Below, in pieces: positions 5,234 to 20,987 of a DNA stretch of 64,000 nucleotides. The stretch covers positions 30,046 to 94,045 of the forward strand of contig CAZGTC010000001.1 in assembly GCA_964528395.1 (NCBI GenBank). Reading direction: 5' to 3'. The notes under the pieces are model-generated. The model made no database searches and had not been told where the DNA came from. It saw nothing but the letters and a program-made list of their open reading frames with translations. This DNA comes from an uncultured bacterium (GTDB lineage Bacteria; Margulisbacteria; WOR-1; CAZGTC01). Position 1 is the first letter of the stretch. Each line of letters begins with the position of its first letter. Position numbers and translations under genes: made by a program.

Positions 5234-6823
5234 ATGAATATGTTTTGCTTTCAATGCGAACAAGCCGCCAAAGGAAAAGGGTGCGAGATCCAAGGGGTAT
5301 GCGGAAAAAAGCCTGAAGTCGCGGCTCTGCAGGATTTGCTTGTTTATAAATTGCTACGAATTGCTGTCCTTAGCGACAAGTCGCGACTTGTTGCTAGGGA
5401 TAATTTTATAATTGAAGCTCTATTTTCAACTGTAACTAATGTTGATTTTGACCCAAAAAGGCTAAAAAAATATATTGATAAGGCGGATGAAATATTGGAA
5501 ACAAACGCAAGCCTTGAGATTGATGATTTAATCAAACAAGGCCAAGCCATCCAGTCAAAGCTCTTTTTTAATTTAACTGAAAATTCAGACGTTAATAGCT
5601 TAAAAAGCCTGCTTTTATTTGGTTTAAAGGGCATGGCTGCTTATTATGACCATGCTTCAATTTTGGGGCAAAAAGACGAAGCTGTAATATCTTTCTTTTA
5701 TAAAGGGTTAAACGCCTTGGCCGCGGAAAATATTTCAGTAGACGAGCTGATCAGCTTAAATATGGAGTTTGGCCAGGTTAATCTAAAATGCTTGGAGCTT
5801 TTGGACAAGGCAAATACCCAGCATTTTGGGCATCCTGTGCCGACCAAAGTTTCTCTCGGGGTAAAAAAAGGCCTAGCGATTTTGGTTTCTGGCCATGATT
5901 TATTAGATTTAGAAGAACTGTTAAAACAAACCGAAGGCAAAGGCATAAACATTTATACTCACGGAGAAATGCTGCCTGCTCATGGCTACCCAGCCTTAAA
6001 AAAATATAAGCATTTGGCGGGGAATTACGGTGGAGCCTGGCAAGACCAATATAAAGAATTTGCAGCTTTTCCGGGTGCGATTTTAATGACTACTAATTGT
6101 ATCCAAAGGCCCGCGGATTCTTATAAAAATAGGATTTTTACAACTGGGCTGGCGGCTTGGCCGGAAGTTGTACATATTTCAGATCGAGAACCTGGCAAGC
6201 CAAAAGATTTTTCTCCTTTGATTGAGGCAGCCAAAAAAGCTGACGGGTTTGAAAAAGATGAAGAGGGAAAAGAAATAATGGTGGGGTTTGGCCGCAATGC
6301 AGTGATGTCGATAGCAGATGAAATAATAGAGGCAATCGAAGCGGACCAAATCAAACATTTCTTTTTGATCGGCGGATGCGATGGGGCAAAGCCGGGCAGG
6401 AATTATTATACGGAATTTGCGCAATTAGCACCGAAAGATACAGTGGTTTTAACTTTGGCGTGTGGTAAGTACCGCTTTAATAAACTGGATTTTGGCGATA
6501 TTAACGGAATCCCGCGGCTTTTAGATATCGGCCAGTGCAATGATGCTTATTCTGCGATCCAGATTGCCTTGGCCTTAAGCAAAGCTTTTAACATGGGAGT
6601 AAATGAGCTTCCTTTGTCTTTAATTTTATCCTGGTACGAGCAAAAAGCAGTTTGTATTTTACTAACTCTGTTATCTTTGGGAATAAAAAATATAAAGCTT
6701 GGGCCCAGCCTGCCAGCTTTTATCTCTCCCAATGTCTTAAAAGTACTGGTTGAAAAGTTTAATATCGCGCCGGTGAAGACAGCACAGGAGGATTTGAAAG
6801 AGATATTAGAAAAAAAGGGATAA
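5234..6823 (+). CDS. hcp: hydroxylamine reductase / hybrid-cluster protein
   Basis: 529 aa; N-terminal Cys cluster FCFQCEQ...C...GVCGK and conserved GHD, GGCDGA, ACGKYRFN, GQCNDAYS blocks. Confidence 0.9.
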   Translation: MNMFCFQCEQAAKGKGCEIQGVCGKKPEVAALQDLLVYKLLRIAVLSDKSRLVARDNFIIEALFSTVTNVDFDPKRLKKYIDKADEILETNASLEIDDLIKQGQAIQSKLFFNLTENSDVNSLKSLLLFGLKGMAAYYDHASILGQKDEAVISFFYKGLNALAAENISVDELISLNMEFGQVNLKCLELLDKANTQHFGHPVPTKVSLGVKKGLAILVSGHDLLDLEELLKQTEGKGINIYTHGEMLPAHGYPALKKYKHLAGNYGGAWQDQYKEFAAFPGAILMTTNCIQRPADSYKNRIFTTGLAAWPEVVHISDREPGKPKDFSPLIEAAKKADGFEKDEEGKEIMVGFGRNAVMSIADEIIEAIEADQIKHFFLIGGCDGAKPGRNYYTEFAQLAPKDTVVLTLACGKYRFNKLDFGDINGIPRLLDIGQCNDAYSAIQIALALSKAFNMGVNELPLSLILSWYEQKAVCILLTLLSLGIKNIKLGPSLPAFISPNVLKVLVEKFNIAPVKTAQEDLKEILEKKG

Positions 6824-15557: not shown

Positions 15558-16844
15558 ATGAATAAAGAAGCCCTAATTAATATTATCAATTTTTGGCAAA
15601 AAGCCGCGGATAAGGAACATCTTTTTCCCCGTTTGCTGCTTAATGCCATCAATTTAAAAGGCGATGAAATTATTGATTTAGTGGGGCCGCGCCGCAGCGG
15701 GAAATCTTCTTTGCTATATTTGATTATTAACCAGATAAAGTCTAAAGGAAATTATTTGTTTATTAATTTTGAAGACCCCTTTTTTATTGAGAATAATGGC
15801 CCGCAAGTGATAGAAGAATTAATTGATGTTTATAAGGAATATTATAATCCTAAGCTCAAATATTTATTTTTTGATGAGATGCAAAATATCAAAGACTGGG
15901 AAAAGGCCATACGGAAATTAGGCGACGGAACAAATTATAAGATCTTTATAACTGGTTCTTCGTCTAAATTATTGAGCCGGGAACTTTCTTCCCTTATTAC
16001 TGGACGGCACCTATCTTTTGAATTGTGGCCGCTTAAATTTAAGGAATATCTTTTATTTAAAGGATTATCTATAGATTCATATCGTGATTTTGCGCAGCAG
16101 AAGACTAAAATCTCCCGTTATTTTAATAAATATATGAAGCTGGGGGGATTTCCAAAAATTGTGCTTAAAGAAAACGAGGAATTGTTGAAACAATATTATT
16201 TGGATATCCTAGAAAAAGATATTATCAAGCATTATGACATTCGGCATAAGCAAATTATAGAAAAATTAGGGGTGTATCTTTTAAGCCAAGCGGGAAAGCT
16301 CTTATCGATTGCCTCTATTCAAAAAACATTTTGGATTTCTTTTGAGATTGCTTCAAATTATATTGATTATTTTAAAGAAGCTTTCCTCGTATTTGAGTTG
16401 CCGCAATTTTCTTATTCTTTAAAAACCCAACAAAAAGCGCAAAAAAAGATATTCGCAGTGGATACTGGGTTGGCCAATGCGGTTTCTTTTCGTTTCTCGG
16501 AAGATAAAGGAAGAATTTTTGAAAACACCGTTTTTATCCATTTAAAGCAAATGTATTCAGAGCTTTATTATTATAAAACAAAAAACAATTTGGAAGTTGA
16601 TTTTCTCTGTAAACAGAGTAAAAAAGTAGAACTTATCCAAGCATGTTTCGATCTTTATGATGAAAAAACAAAGGCTCGTGAAATAAGCGCGCTCGTAGAA
16701 GCAATGAAAGAATTAAAGCTTTCTTCCGGGATTATCCTAACTAATTCCACAAAAGATACGATTAAAATTAAAGGCGCCACGATTCATGTTTTTCCAGCTT
16801 TTGAATGGTTCCTTTTTAATTCTGAAAAACAATTAAAGGATTGA
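15558..16844 (+). CDS. AAA+ superfamily ATPase (COG1373/DUF4143 type)
   Basis: 428 aa; Walker A GPRRSGKSSL, Walker B-like LFFDEMQ; C-terminal DUF4143-like region. Confidence 0.75.
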   Translation: MNKEALINIINFWQKAADKEHLFPRLLLNAINLKGDEIIDLVGPRRSGKSSLLYLIINQIKSKGNYLFINFEDPFFIENNGPQVIEELIDVYKEYYNPKLKYLFFDEMQNIKDWEKAIRKLGDGTNYKIFITGSSSKLLSRELSSLITGRHLSFELWPLKFKEYLLFKGLSIDSYRDFAQQKTKISRYFNKYMKLGGFPKIVLKENEELLKQYYLDILEKDIIKHYDIRHKQIIEKLGVYLLSQAGKLLSIASIQKTFWISFEIASNYIDYFKEAFLVFELPQFSYSLKTQQKAQKKIFAVDTGLANAVSFRFSEDKGRIFENTVFIHLKQMYSELYYYKTKNNLEVDFLCKQSKKVELIQACFDLYDEKTKAREISALVEAMKELKLSSGIILTNSTKDTIKIKGATIHVFPAFEWFLFNSEKQLKD

Positions 16845-16914: not shown

Positions 16915-16939
16915 TATACCATAATTATGGTAATAAATT

Positions 16940-17485
16940 ATGATATCTTTTAAATCTAAAATAGCGGTTAAAATATTGAATTACTTCTTCTTAAATCCGC
17001 AAGAAGAACGTTATATTAACGAACTGTCAAAAATTTTAAATGTAGACGTGAAAAATCTTCATTCTAAGCTTAAGGAGCTGGAAAAAGAAGGCCTTTTAAA
17101 AAGCGAATTTCGCGGAAACCAAAGATATTTTTATCTTAATAAAGATTTTCCATTATTGGAACACTACCGCCAGATTTTCTTAAAAACATCGGGAATTGAA
17201 TATAGGTTAAAGAATATAATTAAAAAGATAAAAGGAATGAAAAATGCTTATCTCTTTGGTTCCTATGCACAAAATACGATGGAAACCGAAAGTGATATAG
17301 ACTTGTTGGCAATTGGAGACCATTCTGTTTTAGAATTACAAAAAAAAATAGCTAAACTTCAGCATGAAATTAGTCGGGAGATAAATGTTGTTAATATGAG
17401 CGAAAAAGAGTATTTAGAAAAAAAGAAAAAGAAAGATCAGTTTGTTTTAAATATTTTTAAAGATAAAGTAATTAATTTATTATGA
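16940..17485 (+). CDS. HTH plus nucleotidyltransferase-domain protein
   Basis: 181 aa; NTase motif LFGSYAQNTMETESDIDLLAI; ATGA overlap with downstream HEPN gene. Confidence 0.7.
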   Translation: MISFKSKIAVKILNYFFLNPQEERYINELSKILNVDVKNLHSKLKELEKEGLLKSEFRGNQRYFYLNKDFPLLEHYRQIFLKTSGIEYRLKNIIKKIKGMKNAYLFGSYAQNTMETESDIDLLAIGDHSVLELQKKIAKLQHEISREINVVNMSEKEYLEKKKKKDQFVLNIFKDKVINLL

Positions 17486-17889
17486 TAAAGTTTGATAAAG
17501 ATTATTTTCAAAAAATAGAATTTTCACAAAAGCAGCTAGAACAGTTTTTAGATTCAGCTAAAAGAGATTTAATTATTGCTAAGCAATCTGATGTTCCGGA
17601 GGTAGTTTTTAAGTTTGCTTATGATGCTCTCTTGAAATTAGGCATATATGTGATTGCTAAACGCGGCTACAAAGTTAAGGCCCGTAGCGGACATCATGTA
17701 AAAATACTAGAAAAATTAGCTCAAATATTAAAGAATGACGACGTTTTTGTTTTAGGAAATAAAATGAGGCAGGATCGTAACTTAGGACTTTATTCTGGCG
17801 GAAGTCCTGCAACAGAAAAAGAATCTGATGAGTATTTAACATTTGTTGAAAAAGTTTTTTCTGATATTTTGGACAAAGGAGTTTTATGA
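17482..17889 (+). CDS. HEPN-domain protein
   Basis: 135 aa, helical; classic NTase-HEPN gene pairing with translational coupling. Confidence 0.6.
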   Translation: MIKFDKDYFQKIEFSQKQLEQFLDSAKRDLIIAKQSDVPEVVFKFAYDALLKLGIYVIAKRGYKVKARSGHHVKILEKLAQILKNDDVFVLGNKMRQDRNLGLYSGGSPATEKESDEYLTFVEKVFSDILDKGVL

Positions 17890-18837: not shown

Positions 18838-19584
18838 ATGATACTCTGGCTTTATACTCTGGTTGCAGTTTTGATTGTCAGCTTATTTTCTTTAATTGGA
18901 ATTTTCACCGTAGTTTTTCGGATCAAAGACCTAAAAAATATCCTGCTTTTTCTGGTGAGCTTATCTGCAGGGACTCTTTTGGGCGGGGCTTTTTTACATC
19001 TCATTCCAGAAGCTGCGGAAAACGGTTTTTCTCTGGGAGTAAGTTTAAACATTTTATCCGGGATTATGGTTTTTTTCATCTTAGAAAAAATTATTTGCTG
19101 GCGGCATTGCCATATCCCCACCTCCAAAACCCATCCCCATCCTTTGGCTGCCATGAATTTGGTGGGGGATGCTTTTCATAATTTTTTAGATGGCACCATT
19201 ATTGCCGGGAGTTTTCTAGTCAGTATTCCTTTGGGTATAAGTACGACTTTGGCCGTGGTTTTGCACGAGATTCCTCAAGAAATCGGGGATTTCGGGGTGT
19301 TGGTGCATAGCGGCTATAGCCGATTAAAGGCTTTGATGATGAATTTTATGGTAGCCTTAACTTCTGTGGCCGGAGCAGTTGGGGTTTTGCTTTTGAGTTC
19401 TCAATTCCAAAAAATTTCTTCTTTTTTGGTGCCTTTTACAGCTGGGGCGTTTATTTATATCGCGGCTTCGGATCTAATTCCAGAATTAAAGCTTAATACC
19501 CAGGCAAAGCATTCGCTAGTCCAGCTTATAGTGTTGGTGTTTGGCATGGGGCTGATGGGCCTGCTTTTGCTGTTAGGGCACTAG
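18838..19584 (+). CDS. ZIP-family metal cation transporter
   Basis: 248 aa; multi-TM; HEIPQEIGDFGVL signature. Confidence 0.8.
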   Translation: MILWLYTLVAVLIVSLFSLIGIFTVVFRIKDLKNILLFLVSLSAGTLLGGAFLHLIPEAAENGFSLGVSLNILSGIMVFFILEKIICWRHCHIPTSKTHPHPLAAMNLVGDAFHNFLDGTIIAGSFLVSIPLGISTTLAVVLHEIPQEIGDFGVLVHSGYSRLKALMMNFMVALTSVAGAVGVLLLSSQFQKISSFLVPFTAGAFIYIAASDLIPELKLNTQAKHSLVQLIVLVFGMGLMGLLLLLGH

Positions 19585-19600
19585 TTAGTCATATGACTAA
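19585..19600. promoter_or_regulatory. perfect 16-bp palindrome, candidate operator
   Basis: TTAGTCATATGACTAA immediately after the ZIP stop and ~50 nt upstream of a wHTH gene. Confidence 0.4.
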
Positions 19601-19651
19601 CAATATTAGTCGTTGTTTTTTCTGCTATTTATTGCTATACTTTTCTTTAAT

Positions 19652-19981
19652 ATGTTAAAAGCAATCTTAGATAATCCAATCAAAGAATGTATTCTTCTTA
19701 TTATTTTAGAGGAAAAAGAGGCTTATGCTCGTGAGATAGCTTTGAGGCTTAATAAGTATTTGCTCTCTATCCAAAAACAATTAAAAAAGTTGGAATACGG
19801 GGGCGTCTTATGCAGCAAATTGATGGGGAGAACAAGAATATATTCATTTAATCCAAGGTATCCTTTTTTAGCAGAATTGAAGGCTTTACTAAAAAGATCA
19901 ATTGATTTTATGAATACACAGGAAAAAGAAGCGCTTTTTGTTGGAAGAACCAGGCCGCGTCGATCAGGAAAGCCAATATGA
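19652..19981 (+). CDS. small winged-helix DNA-binding protein (putative antitoxin/regulator)
   Basis: Start moved to the first ATG (the track start at 19613 is TTG); ATGA overlap with the downstream NTase-like gene. Confidence 0.4.
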   Translation: MLKAILDNPIKECILLIILEEKEAYAREIALRLNKYLLSIQKQLKKLEYGGVLCSKLMGRTRIYSFNPRYPFLAELKALLKRSIDFMNTQEKEALFVGRTRPRRSGKPI

Positions 19982-20541
19982 TTAAATCTTATAAGAATAT
20001 TTCAATAAAAGATTTAGCAGCAATTGTTTGCCAACAGCTTAAGCAATATTCAATTGATGCAGTGCTTACCGGAGGTGCTTGTGTATCTATTTATACTAAA
20101 AACAAGTATTTATCACATGATCTTGATTTTGTTTCAGGCGCAGTTGAATTGCTAGGTAAAAAGATTAAAGCTGCGATGGAAGAGATTGGATTTTATTTAA
20201 ATCCCCAAAATTATTTTGCCAATCCGCAATGTAAATTTTTTATTGAATTTATACCTTCTCCTTTGGCGATTGGAAAAGAGCTGGTAAAAAAAGTAAAGAG
20301 ATTGCCTACTAGAAGAGGGACTATAAAAATGCTTACCCCAACAGACAGTGTAAAAGACCGGTTAGCAGCTTATTTTTATTGGAATGATAAACAATCTTTT
20401 GAGCAGGCGCTTATGATTGCAGAAAAAAACAGAATAAATTTGGCAAATATTAAAAAATGGGCACAAAAAGAAAAACAAACTAAGAAACTTAAAGATTTTA
20501 CTTATACCTTATCTTCGCGCAGATCAAATAAAAGTCTATAA
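19978..20541 (+). CDS. minimal nucleotidyltransferase-fold protein (putative toxin partner)
   Basis: 187 aa; LTGGACVSIYTKNKYLSHDLDFV matches the GG...DhD NTase motif. Confidence 0.45.
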   Translation: MIKSYKNISIKDLAAIVCQQLKQYSIDAVLTGGACVSIYTKNKYLSHDLDFVSGAVELLGKKIKAAMEEIGFYLNPQNYFANPQCKFFIEFIPSPLAIGKELVKKVKRLPTRRGTIKMLTPTDSVKDRLAAYFYWNDKQSFEQALMIAEKNRINLANIKKWAQKEKQTKKLKDFTYTLSSRRSNKSL

Positions 20542-20752
20542 ACAGGGTAATGGAATTAGCGGCGATAATCGGCAGAGATTTTAAGATCAAGCCGTAGGTG
20601 GTCCACAAAATTAAGCCTGCAAAAAGCATAATCAGCATGGCCAAAGACAGGTCTTTTGTGTGCTTAGTTTGATAAACTTTAATTGCTTGCGGCAGAAAAG
20701 CAGCGGTGGTCAAAATAGCAGCCAGAGATCCGATATAAAATGTAATTTCCAT
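20498..20752 (-). CDS. SemiSWEET / PQ-loop family transporter
   Basis: ~84 aa from internal ATG (MEITFYIGS...); three TM helices with LPQAIKVYQTK motif. Confidence 0.6.
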   Translation of the reverse strand: MEITFYIGSLAAILTTAAFLPQAIKVYQTKHTKDLSLAMLIMLFAGLILWTTYGLILKSLPIIAANSITLFIDFYLICAKIRYK

Positions 20753-20799
20753 AGATTGAGATTCTATCTTTTTTGATGTGAAAAGTCTATTTTTTATGT

Positions 20800-20987
20800 C
20801 CTCACCCAAACCTCACCCTAATCTTTCTTATATGTTAGCGAATTCTAAAACTACCCTCTCCTAAAAGGAGAGGGATTATCTATTTTTCGCTCAAAATTAA
20901 ATCCTTCTCCTGTGGGAGAAGCCTGCCTGCCGGTAGGCAGGGTTGCATGCGAAAAGATTGCTAATAACGAGTAATCAGGATGAGGGT
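20800..20987 (-). repeat. MITE-like composite intergenic repeat, copy B (inverted relative to copy A)
   Basis: cctcaccc ... ccctctcc-taaaa-ggagaggg (20854-20874) ... ccttctcc-tgtggg-agaag (20903-20921) + inserted cctgcctgccggtaggcagg (20922-20941) ... aggatgagg. Confidence 0.6.

Follow-up and report, generated by a model that had tools for sequence, protein, structure and literature searches.

Nucleotidyltransferase (NTase) toxins of the AbiEii and MenT type are a recently understood class in which extension of tRNA 3' ends blocks translation and auto-phosphorylation induced by the antitoxin switches the toxin off. The enzymes add nucleotides to tRNA at its 3'-CCA end, blocking aminoacylation (PMC7450476, PMC10435456), and MenT1 T39, MenT3 S78 and AbiEii T65 are auto-phosphorylated on antitoxin binding (PMC11375011; bioRxiv 10.64898/2026.01.19.700257), the phosphoacceptor being located two residues before the first catalytic Asp in both MenT1 (T39-x-D41-x-D43; PMC10435456) and MenT3 (S78-x-D80; PMC11375011). 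Here we analyse a two-gene cassette in a 64,000-nucleotide (nt) stretch of DNA, referred to as the window, from an uncultured bacterium of the Margulisbacteria (WOR-1 lineage, CAZGTC01; contig CAZGTC010000001.1, positions 30,046 to 94,045), in which a gene for a 109-amino acid (aa) winged helix-turn-helix (wHTH) protein is followed by one for a 187-aa NTase-like protein. With a confidence slightly better than even, we propose that the cassette is an autonomous, mobile and autoregulated module of NTase toxin and wHTH antitoxin akin to MenAT and AbiE, toxicity and target being deduced from this likeness. The best reading is that of an unnamed family of the NTase-toxin toxin-antitoxin (TA) type which lies outside the known NTase-toxin sequence models.

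The cassette shares its layout with several described systems, each of which also differs from it. In AbiE, MenAT3 and MenAT4 a wHTH antitoxin, encoded first, represses its own operon via inverted repeats (PMC7319586) and the NTase toxin is encoded second, and these modules are, as is the cassette, widespread and mobile. However, AbiEii, MenT3 and MenT4 are ~290 aa DUF1814 proteins whereas the cassette NTase is 187 aa and fails those models, and AbiEi (COG5340; ~195 aa) carries a ~120-aa C-terminal antitoxicity domain which is absent from the 109-aa cassette wHTH; the PADLOC AbiEi models do not match the latter. MenAT1 (Rv0078B/Rv0078A) of Mycobacterium tuberculosis corresponds in being bicistronic, with a small upstream gene preceding a ~190-aa NTase. 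In contrast, MenA1 is described as a short protein whose contact with MenT1 is made by one extended alpha-helix (PMC10435456, PMC11375011), while the partner in the cassette is an ArsR-like wHTH equipped with an operator array. PDC-M05A proteins are fusions of a wHTH with a minimal nucleotidyltransferase (MNT) that pair with HEPN (PMC12988326). PDC-M05 and the cassette have in common a wHTH of the same lineage, a palindrome directly upstream of the wHTH gene and an NTase-superfamily protein, but PDC-M05 joins the wHTH and a minimal MNT in one protein, the MNT acting as antitoxin against a HEPN RNase toxin, whereas the cassette encodes a separate wHTH and an NTase with its own helical domain, and no HEPN. 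By analogy, the closest systems in workings would be MenAT1, with its compact ~190-aa NTase toxin and small upstream antitoxin, and AbiE, with its autoregulating wHTH antitoxin. When the locus was first noticed, its NTase was said to be much shorter than the AbiEii and MNT partners described, which does not hold. The protein is shorter than AbiEii, MenT3 and MenT4, but it is approximately the size of the characterised toxin MenT1 (195-residue chain 8an4_A; PMC10435456) and longer than minimal MNTs, which are typically under 150 aa (PMC2701414). The cassette is named nowhere in Pfam, NCBIfam, PADLOC or RefSeq product names, RefSeq labelling it 'hypothetical', and no description of the pair was found in the literature searched (DUF2204, Leptospira, NetFlax-type); the TA survey of Makarova et al. 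2009 lists no wHTH and NTase pair of this kind (PMC2701414).

Conservation and mobility of the gene pair

The cassette consists of two overlapping genes.

19652..19981, plus strand: 109-aa ArsR-like winged-helix gene, proposed autorepressor/antitoxin (homologue alignment and family profile)
19978..19981, plus strand: ATGA overlap between wHTH stop and NTase start
19978..20541, plus strand: 187-aa gene for a predicted Pol-beta-fold NTase with a C-terminal four-helix domain, proposed toxin (AlphaFold model and family alignment)

Both the ATGA overlap and the 187-aa open reading frame (ORF), already pointed out in the original prediction, are confirmed, and the overlap implies translational coupling. 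Conservation of the pair, which had been suggested as a check, is extensive. In 79 of 80 loci retrieved via the NTase, the gene directly preceding it in the same orientation encodes a wHTH homologue, the one remaining locus being cut by a contig end, and look-ups in the reverse direction, from wHTH homologues, found an NTase homologue downstream with a 4-nt overlap in three of three cases. The junction is a 4-nt NTGA overlap in 65/79 loci, and the more a pair of loci diverges in the wHTH, the more it tends to diverge in the NTase (Spearman 0.58, Mantel p<=0.001). In P0185 (279 aa) a wHTH and an NTase-like protein are naturally fused into one chain, in which the motif is degenerate, GG having changed to GP and DLD to HLI; judged from its sequence the fusion is not itself a working enzyme, but it argues for physical association of the two proteins. 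Two small, co-directional and overlapping genes with the predicted DNA-binding antitoxin first and a candidate operator in the promoter constitute the generic organisation of a type II-like operon.

Both families are large. The NTase family comprises 876 clusters at 90% identity and 2,127 clusters at 50% identity (E<=1e-3), its members being ~177-187 aa and annotated 'hypothetical', and the wHTH family returned 716 hits, nearly all of 109 aa. Members of the NTase family occur in the genomes of at least 580 species, which represent more than ten phyla, including Nitrospirota/Thermodesulfovibrionia, Saganbacteria/Margulisiibacteriota, Chlamydiota, Omnitrophota, Elusimicrobiota, Actinomycetota, Desulfobacterota, Planctomycetota and Pseudomonadota; anaerobes that have not been cultivated and environmental chlamydiae make up most of the hosts. 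The genes flanking the pair differ from one locus to the next, clustering by similarity dividing 260 such ORFs into 250 groups, and the 136 nearest neighbours match 144 Pfam families, of which nearly every one is seen once only and most have housekeeping functions. The pair is carried by 23 plasmids, 20 from Leptospira and one each from Bdellovibrio, Sulfurospirillum and Sulfurimonas. On Leptospira interrogans pLiSL32 (L083, 3655-4546) it lies between parB and parA, preceded by two direct repeats GTATTGACTAAAAAGTAG and the palindrome CTTAATATATTAAG, and on Sulfurospirillum pSulSP (L084, 3675-4537) it is located beside an IS982 transposase and recombinases, with GATATA/TATATC repeats upstream; these two copies, residing in cultured bacteria, are useful experimental entry points. 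There is no match in 50,697 phage genomes (INPHARED) and the pair is found on only one of 2.9 million IMG/VR contigs, and a phage origin was rejected on these grounds. Unrelated flanks, broad host range, plasmid copies and near-absence from phages combine to show that the two genes behave as an autonomous, horizontally transferred module. The patchy phyletic spread, variable context and plasmid presence are those of a generic type II-like TA system, and the TA- or abortive infection (Abi)-like layout proposed originally is backed by the conserved overlap, the unrelated flanks and the plasmid copies.

Relative to most homologues the window NTase has a non-conserved C-terminal extension of ~8 aa. 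A convergent gene for a 103-aa PQ-loop/MtN3 (SemiSWEET-like) protein (20498-20809, minus strand) shares 44 nt with the 3' end of the NTase gene.

Half-site arrays upstream of the wHTH gene

Three elements precede the wHTH gene in the window.

19584..19601, no strand: perfect 18-bp palindrome GTTAGTCATATGACTAAC, half-sites 1 and 2 (TTAGTC, 4-nt ATAT spacer, GACTAA)
19606..19611, plus strand: third half-site TTAGTC, forming an everted repeat with GACTAA at 19595-19600 across a 5-nt spacer
19613..19641, plus strand: candidate sigma-70-type promoter (-35 TTGTTT at 19613-19618, 17-nt spacer, extended -10 TGcTATACT at 19633-19641)

Comparable elements are a general property of the family: within the 100 nt that precede the wHTH gene, 91% of 76 loci have an inverted repeat (arms >=6, loop <=7), the control rate being 26% both for shuffled sequences and for the region downstream of the NTase. 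The repeats, which overlap the -35 or the -10/start region, are organised as arrays of three or four half-sites which either abut the -35, as a palindrome plus third half-site common to the window, L001, L005, L008 and L010, or span the region from a TTGACA -35 to the start codon, as in most Nitrospirota loci, where the analogous units are ACCAT-N5-ATGGT. The half-site differs by lineage and tracks the start of the recognition helix, as follows.

Half-site TTAGTC: recognition helix (Y/H)LLS(I/V)Q, in the window, L001 and L005
Half-site TACCAT/ATGGTA: recognition helix PVNxxQQQ, in many loci
Half-site TAGGT(C/T): recognition helix LSPIQK, in many loci
Half-site TTGGTC: recognition helix LNAVQN, in L039 and L053
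Half-site GTACA: recognition helix PVNG(V/I)(T/V)QQ, in L041, L047 and L075

This co-variation is hard to explain unless the wHTH binds these repeats. Autoregulation of the wHTH through the upstream repeats, an idea already present in the original prediction, is strongly supported by the comparison of loci, both through repeat enrichment and through co-variation of helix and half-site. The correlation also provides a ready-made data set for the specificity of wHTH-DNA recognition.

In the window, TTAGTCATATGACTAA is indeed a perfect 16-bp palindrome (19585-19600), as initially reported, and grows to the perfect 18-mer GTTAGTCATATGACTAAC (19584-19601), the first base of which, 19584, is also the final base of the stop codon of the upstream ZIP-family transporter gene. 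The whole array, 19585-19611, reads TTAGTC-ATAT-GACTAA-CAATA-TTAGTC. An identical 16-mer occupies the matching relative position in loci L001 and L005, and palindromes of related design are located upstream in most other loci. The small wHTH gene had been placed ~50 nt downstream of the palindrome; the distance from the 16-mer to its ATG at 19652 is 51 nt. A mechanical ORF list gave instead a 122-aa ORF from TTG 19613, a start which was rejected because the alignments of all 79 homologues elsewhere begin at the first residue encoded from ATG 19652. The window promoter was placed by position from L005 (TTAGTC-A-TTGACA, then TATAAT); it was not picked up by a stringent consensus promoter scan. 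Over the family, TTGAC occurs in 79% of upstream regions versus 20% of background windows. The start codon lies 10 nt past the candidate -10 hexamer, so that an mRNA initiated at this inferred promoter would be leaderless or nearly so.

Taken alone, the palindrome could be a chance occurrence: in mononucleotide shuffles of the window, perfect palindromes with arms >=8 arise 1.0 times on average and those with arms >=9 0.23 times. The 64-kb window contains only three perfect palindromes with arms >=8, two of which (16917-16932 and 19584-19601) are directly upstream of its two wHTH-lineage genes. The third, of 16 bp, is ACAAGTCGCGACTTGT at 5376-5391. A random palindrome lying beside two unrelated small ORFs would agree with the one perfect 16-bp palindrome per 64 kb expected by chance, but both ORFs belong to large conserved families, their pairing is conserved, and operator repeats are found upstream far more often than in the controls, with half-sites that change along with the recognition helix; chance juxtaposition is refuted, its probability being close to nil. 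The palindrome was also considered as a terminator of the ZIP gene and rejected, as it has neither loop nor T-run and the terminator scan was negative there.

The wHTH protein has no Pfam match of its own. A profile built from 30 family members matches, over residues 11-81 comprising HTH and wing, two ArsR-family wHTH structures, 3f6v (E=8.4e-5) and 6o8k (E=4.2e-4), while NCBIfam HTH_metalloreg matches the 109-aa protein below cut-off (E=8.9e-4) and single members weakly match HTH_29, TrmB, MarR_2 and HTH_5. No Cys or His is conserved among the invariant or near-invariant columns of the wHTH family, and an ArsR/SmtB-type metal or ligand site was not found there. The wHTH shares homology with the domain found at the N-terminus of PADLOC PDC-M05A proteins (E=3.6e-8), and hhalign matches it to the PDC-M05A-like protein of the window itself with a probability of 93.8% (E=1.8e-7). 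At its C-terminus, the basic tail R-x-R-P-R-R-x-G-K-P (residues 99-108, window 19946-19975) is nearly invariant, whereas its codons vary synonymously between loci, indicating that the constraint acts on the protein; conservation of RPRRxGKP merely as a Shine-Dalgarno sequence for the downstream gene was rejected for the same reason. The tail could contact the NTase or could be an AT-hook-like minor-groove reader of the A/T-rich spacers.

Predicted fold and active site of the nucleotidyltransferase

The original prediction had called for a fold prediction of the second gene product as a further check. An AlphaFold2 model computed from a 28-sequence alignment has a predicted local distance difference test (pLDDT) score of 94.5 and a predicted template modelling (pTM) score of 0.89, and consists of an alpha-beta-alpha-beta-alpha-beta NTase core followed by four helices. 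Its structural matches are listed with their scores.

5uvd (fungal NTase-like protein): 13.0
ANT(2'')-Ia: 11.8
MenT1 toxin: 11.7
LnuA: 10.6
JHP933: 9.9
TM1012: 9.6
MenT3: 9.6
MenT4: 9.6

Foldseek returns the same set of neighbours, and both the Pol-beta core and the C-terminal helical region of the model superpose on MenT structures. The outcome of the fold check is therefore positive: the modelled 187-aa protein has a Pol-beta NTase fold with intact catalytic residues, and is predicted to be enzymatically active.

The NTase signature noted from the outset is present as L-T-G32-G33-A-C...S46-H-D48-L-D50-F, with E90 as the third carboxylate. G32 G33, S46, D48, D50 and E90 are invariant in family alignment A1, as is the TPTDSVKDRLAAYYHWND block, and D127, R128, W135 and D137 are also conserved. 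Among 245 members, retention is 98% for G32, 94% for S/T46 (231/245), 92% for D48, 99.6% for D/E50 and 92% for E/D90. MenT1 and the cassette thus share a Ser/Thr two residues before the first catalytic Asp, S46-x-D48-x-D50 in the cassette, and S46 may likewise be compared with the phosphoacceptors in the active-site loops of MenT3 (S78) and AbiEii (T65), a likeness which leaves aside the spacing of T65 from the Asp. The top structural match, 5uvd, carries T-E-D-V-D. By their similar spacing, K126 and D137 are candidates for the motif III lysine and the motif IV aspartate (K137 and D152 in MenT1); K126 is variable (K in 176/245, R in 30, M in 28), whereas R128 and D137 are near-invariant and D127 is conserved.

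Sequence comparison places the protein in no described family. MenT1 and the cassette NTase have no detectable sequence similarity, and the latter matches no DUF1814/AbiEii model. In Pfam the window protein has only a sub-threshold similarity, to the NTase family DUF2204 (PF09970), of similar length (181-position profile), which matches weakly over the N-terminal helix and GG...D-x-D, covering ~36 residues at 15.4 bits, below the 20.3 gathering cut-off; 26/28 family members scanned give such a match (best E=5.7e-4), all below cut-off. DUF2204 has no assigned function and adds no mechanistic information on the cassette. The NTase matches no NCBIfam or PADLOC model. NTP_transf_2/Polbeta (PF01909/PF18765) is not matched by the 187-aa protein and no HEPN partner is encoded, so the pair is not of the MNT-HEPN kind, and PDB sequence searches, whether made with the protein alone or with a profile of its family, returned nothing significant, the best match being 5uvd at E=0.5 over motif I only. 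A HEPN-like reading of the C-terminal helices, in which R128-LAAYY-H134 fits Rx4-6H, was judged unlikely because position 134 is Y/F in the window protein and several homologues.

The presence of ANT(2'')-Ia and LnuA among the structural matches introduces the chief competitor of a toxin, a regulated small-molecule NTase which would adenylylate an antibiotic or xenobiotic as ANT(2'')-Ia or Lnu do, with the wHTH as its dedicated repressor and the whole as a mobile resistance or detoxification cassette. Sequence identity to ANT(2'')-Ia and LnuA is ~9-14%, with no sequence-model match, although one of the 28 members weakly matches the Aminoglyc_resit Pfam model. The cassette is mobile and plasmid-borne, and Makarova et al. 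2009 caution that a mobile module of two genes under regulation may turn out to be a resistance system (PMC2701414). Sensing of a drug is not obvious, however, in a 109-aa wHTH with neither a ligand-binding domain nor conserved Cys/His, and the conserved 4-nt overlap, the co-divergence and the natural fusion suggest that the two proteins act physically together. In addition, the [S/T]-x-D-x-D motif is of the MenT/AbiEii type, most hosts are anaerobes that have not been cultivated or environmental chlamydiae, and the neighbours supply no resistance-gene context. We know of no instance in which the gene for ANT(2'')-Ia or LnuA is translationally coupled to that of an autoregulating wHTH partner. 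This explanation is considered rather improbable.

Some relatives have lost the active site. A side branch of 200-255 aa proteins (P0184, P0248, P0237, P0244, P0211, P0255 and others) carries a Lys/Arg-rich N-terminal extension and has lost GG, S46, D48 and E90 but keeps the C-terminal TPTDCVRQRLSxYYRWGD block, and is probably a non-catalytic derivative; persistence of the block in the absence of catalytic residues suggests that it has a role independent of catalysis. That catalytically dead relatives persist, at least one fused to a wHTH, would fit a non-toxic regulatory switch, in which the NTase AMPylates a protein, possibly the wHTH partner or its Arg/Lys-rich tail, as MNT does HEPN, and so tunes DNA binding and expression. 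Two further points lead in the same direction: PDC-M05A proteins carry a wHTH of this lineage joined to MNT, and the tail is near-invariant as protein while its codons vary synonymously. It is hard to see, however, what selective advantage a purely self-regulating cassette would bring, no third gene or regulon is conserved, the invariant tail positions offer no conserved Ser/Thr/Tyr acceptor, and the closest characterised structural relatives with an upstream partner gene are toxins. A switch of this type is judged unlikely.

Proposed function and genomic setting

A module of NTase toxin and wHTH antitoxin would operate as follows. The wHTH, presumably as a dimer, would bind the three half-sites at 19585-19611 abutting the -35 and repress its own bicistronic operon, a step for which comparative support is strong. 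The translationally coupled second gene would produce a compact Pol-beta-fold NTase with an intact catalytic triad and predicted activity. By analogy with MenT1/3/4 and AbiEii, this enzyme would most likely add nucleotides to an RNA 3' end, probably that of tRNA acceptor stems, arresting translation when unchecked. More speculatively, the wHTH may neutralise the NTase by direct contact, either through sequestration or through induced auto-phosphorylation of Ser46. The module would likely serve in stabilisation of the replicon or locus, or in growth arrest triggered by stress or phage. A more ambitious version, which we regard as no better than a long shot, is that of a broad type VII-like NTase TA family in which the 109-aa wHTH both represses the operon and silences a MenT1-sized RNA NTase through its Arg-rich tail and auto-phosphorylation of Ser46. 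The Ser46 hypothesis derives from the match of S46-x-D48-x-D50 to the MenT1 and MenT3 sites and from the presence of S/T46 in 231/245 members. If it is true, antitoxin-induced auto-phosphorylation would be an ancestral control of the NTase clade, extending beyond DUF1814.

Several observations weigh against a TA function. Toxicity, antitoxicity, contact between the proteins and DNA binding are all predictions from sequence. ANT(2'') and LnuA are structurally as close as the MenT toxins, and consequently the fold does not identify the substrate. AbiEii/DUF1814 does not match the 187-aa protein at E<=1 in Pfam or PADLOC and does not figure in the set of 22 Pfam families to which the 28 members scanned gave matches, and neither MNT nor any PADLOC toxin model shows a significant sequence match to the NTase. 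The candidate motif III lysine, K126, is Lys in only 72% of members, and loss of catalytic residues in the side branch indicates, at the level of sequence, that some members do something non-catalytic. Finally, a dedicated anti-phage role is unsupported both by the neighbours, which are mostly housekeeping with sporadic defence genes (PADLOC and Pfam, 136 genes), and by the near-absence of the pair from phage and viral collections.

The immediate surroundings of the cassette include a second module of related composition.

16940-17485: wHTH-MNT fusion gene (PADLOC PDC-M05A, E=2.3e-36; Pfam NTP_transf_2, Polbeta)
17482-17889: HEPN-like PDC-M05B gene (PADLOC, E=4.1e-13), overlapping the 16940-17485 gene

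This pair (16940-17889), ~2 kb upstream of the cassette, has the characteristics of an MNT-HEPN (PDC-M05) system, and its wHTH-MNT fusion is the only other gene in the window of the cassette wHTH lineage. The palindrome TACCATAATTATGGTA (16917-16932) lies 8 nt before the start codon of the fusion gene, and its half-sites match those in the operators of Nitrospirota copies of the wHTH and NTase pair. Directly upstream of the PDC-M05-like pair is an AAA_14/DUF4143 ATPase gene (~15558-16844, plus strand; gene table of the identical Logan contig L081). The ATPase gene and the two NTase modules suggest a small islet of accessory genes among trxB-like and ZIP genes.

Proximity of the PDC-M05 candidate is one argument for an alternative in which the cassette is a dedicated Abi or anti-phage system, which would have the mechanism described above but be selected for phage defence, as is AbiE. 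The fold resembles the AbiEii/MenT class, the wHTH domain matches PADLOC candidate-system models, and defence genes are neighbours at a few homologous loci. Neighbours are nevertheless overwhelmingly housekeeping, a defence-island context was rejected since defence matches among the 136 neighbouring genes are only sporadic, and no PADLOC model recognises the NTase. A function dedicated to defence is considered quite unlikely.

If the cassette is instead the TA module proposed here, the repertoire of NTase toxins would be enlarged and would include a very small, tractable antitoxin/repressor whose operator code is readable from comparative data. The pair would also be a candidate maintenance module for Leptospira plasmids.

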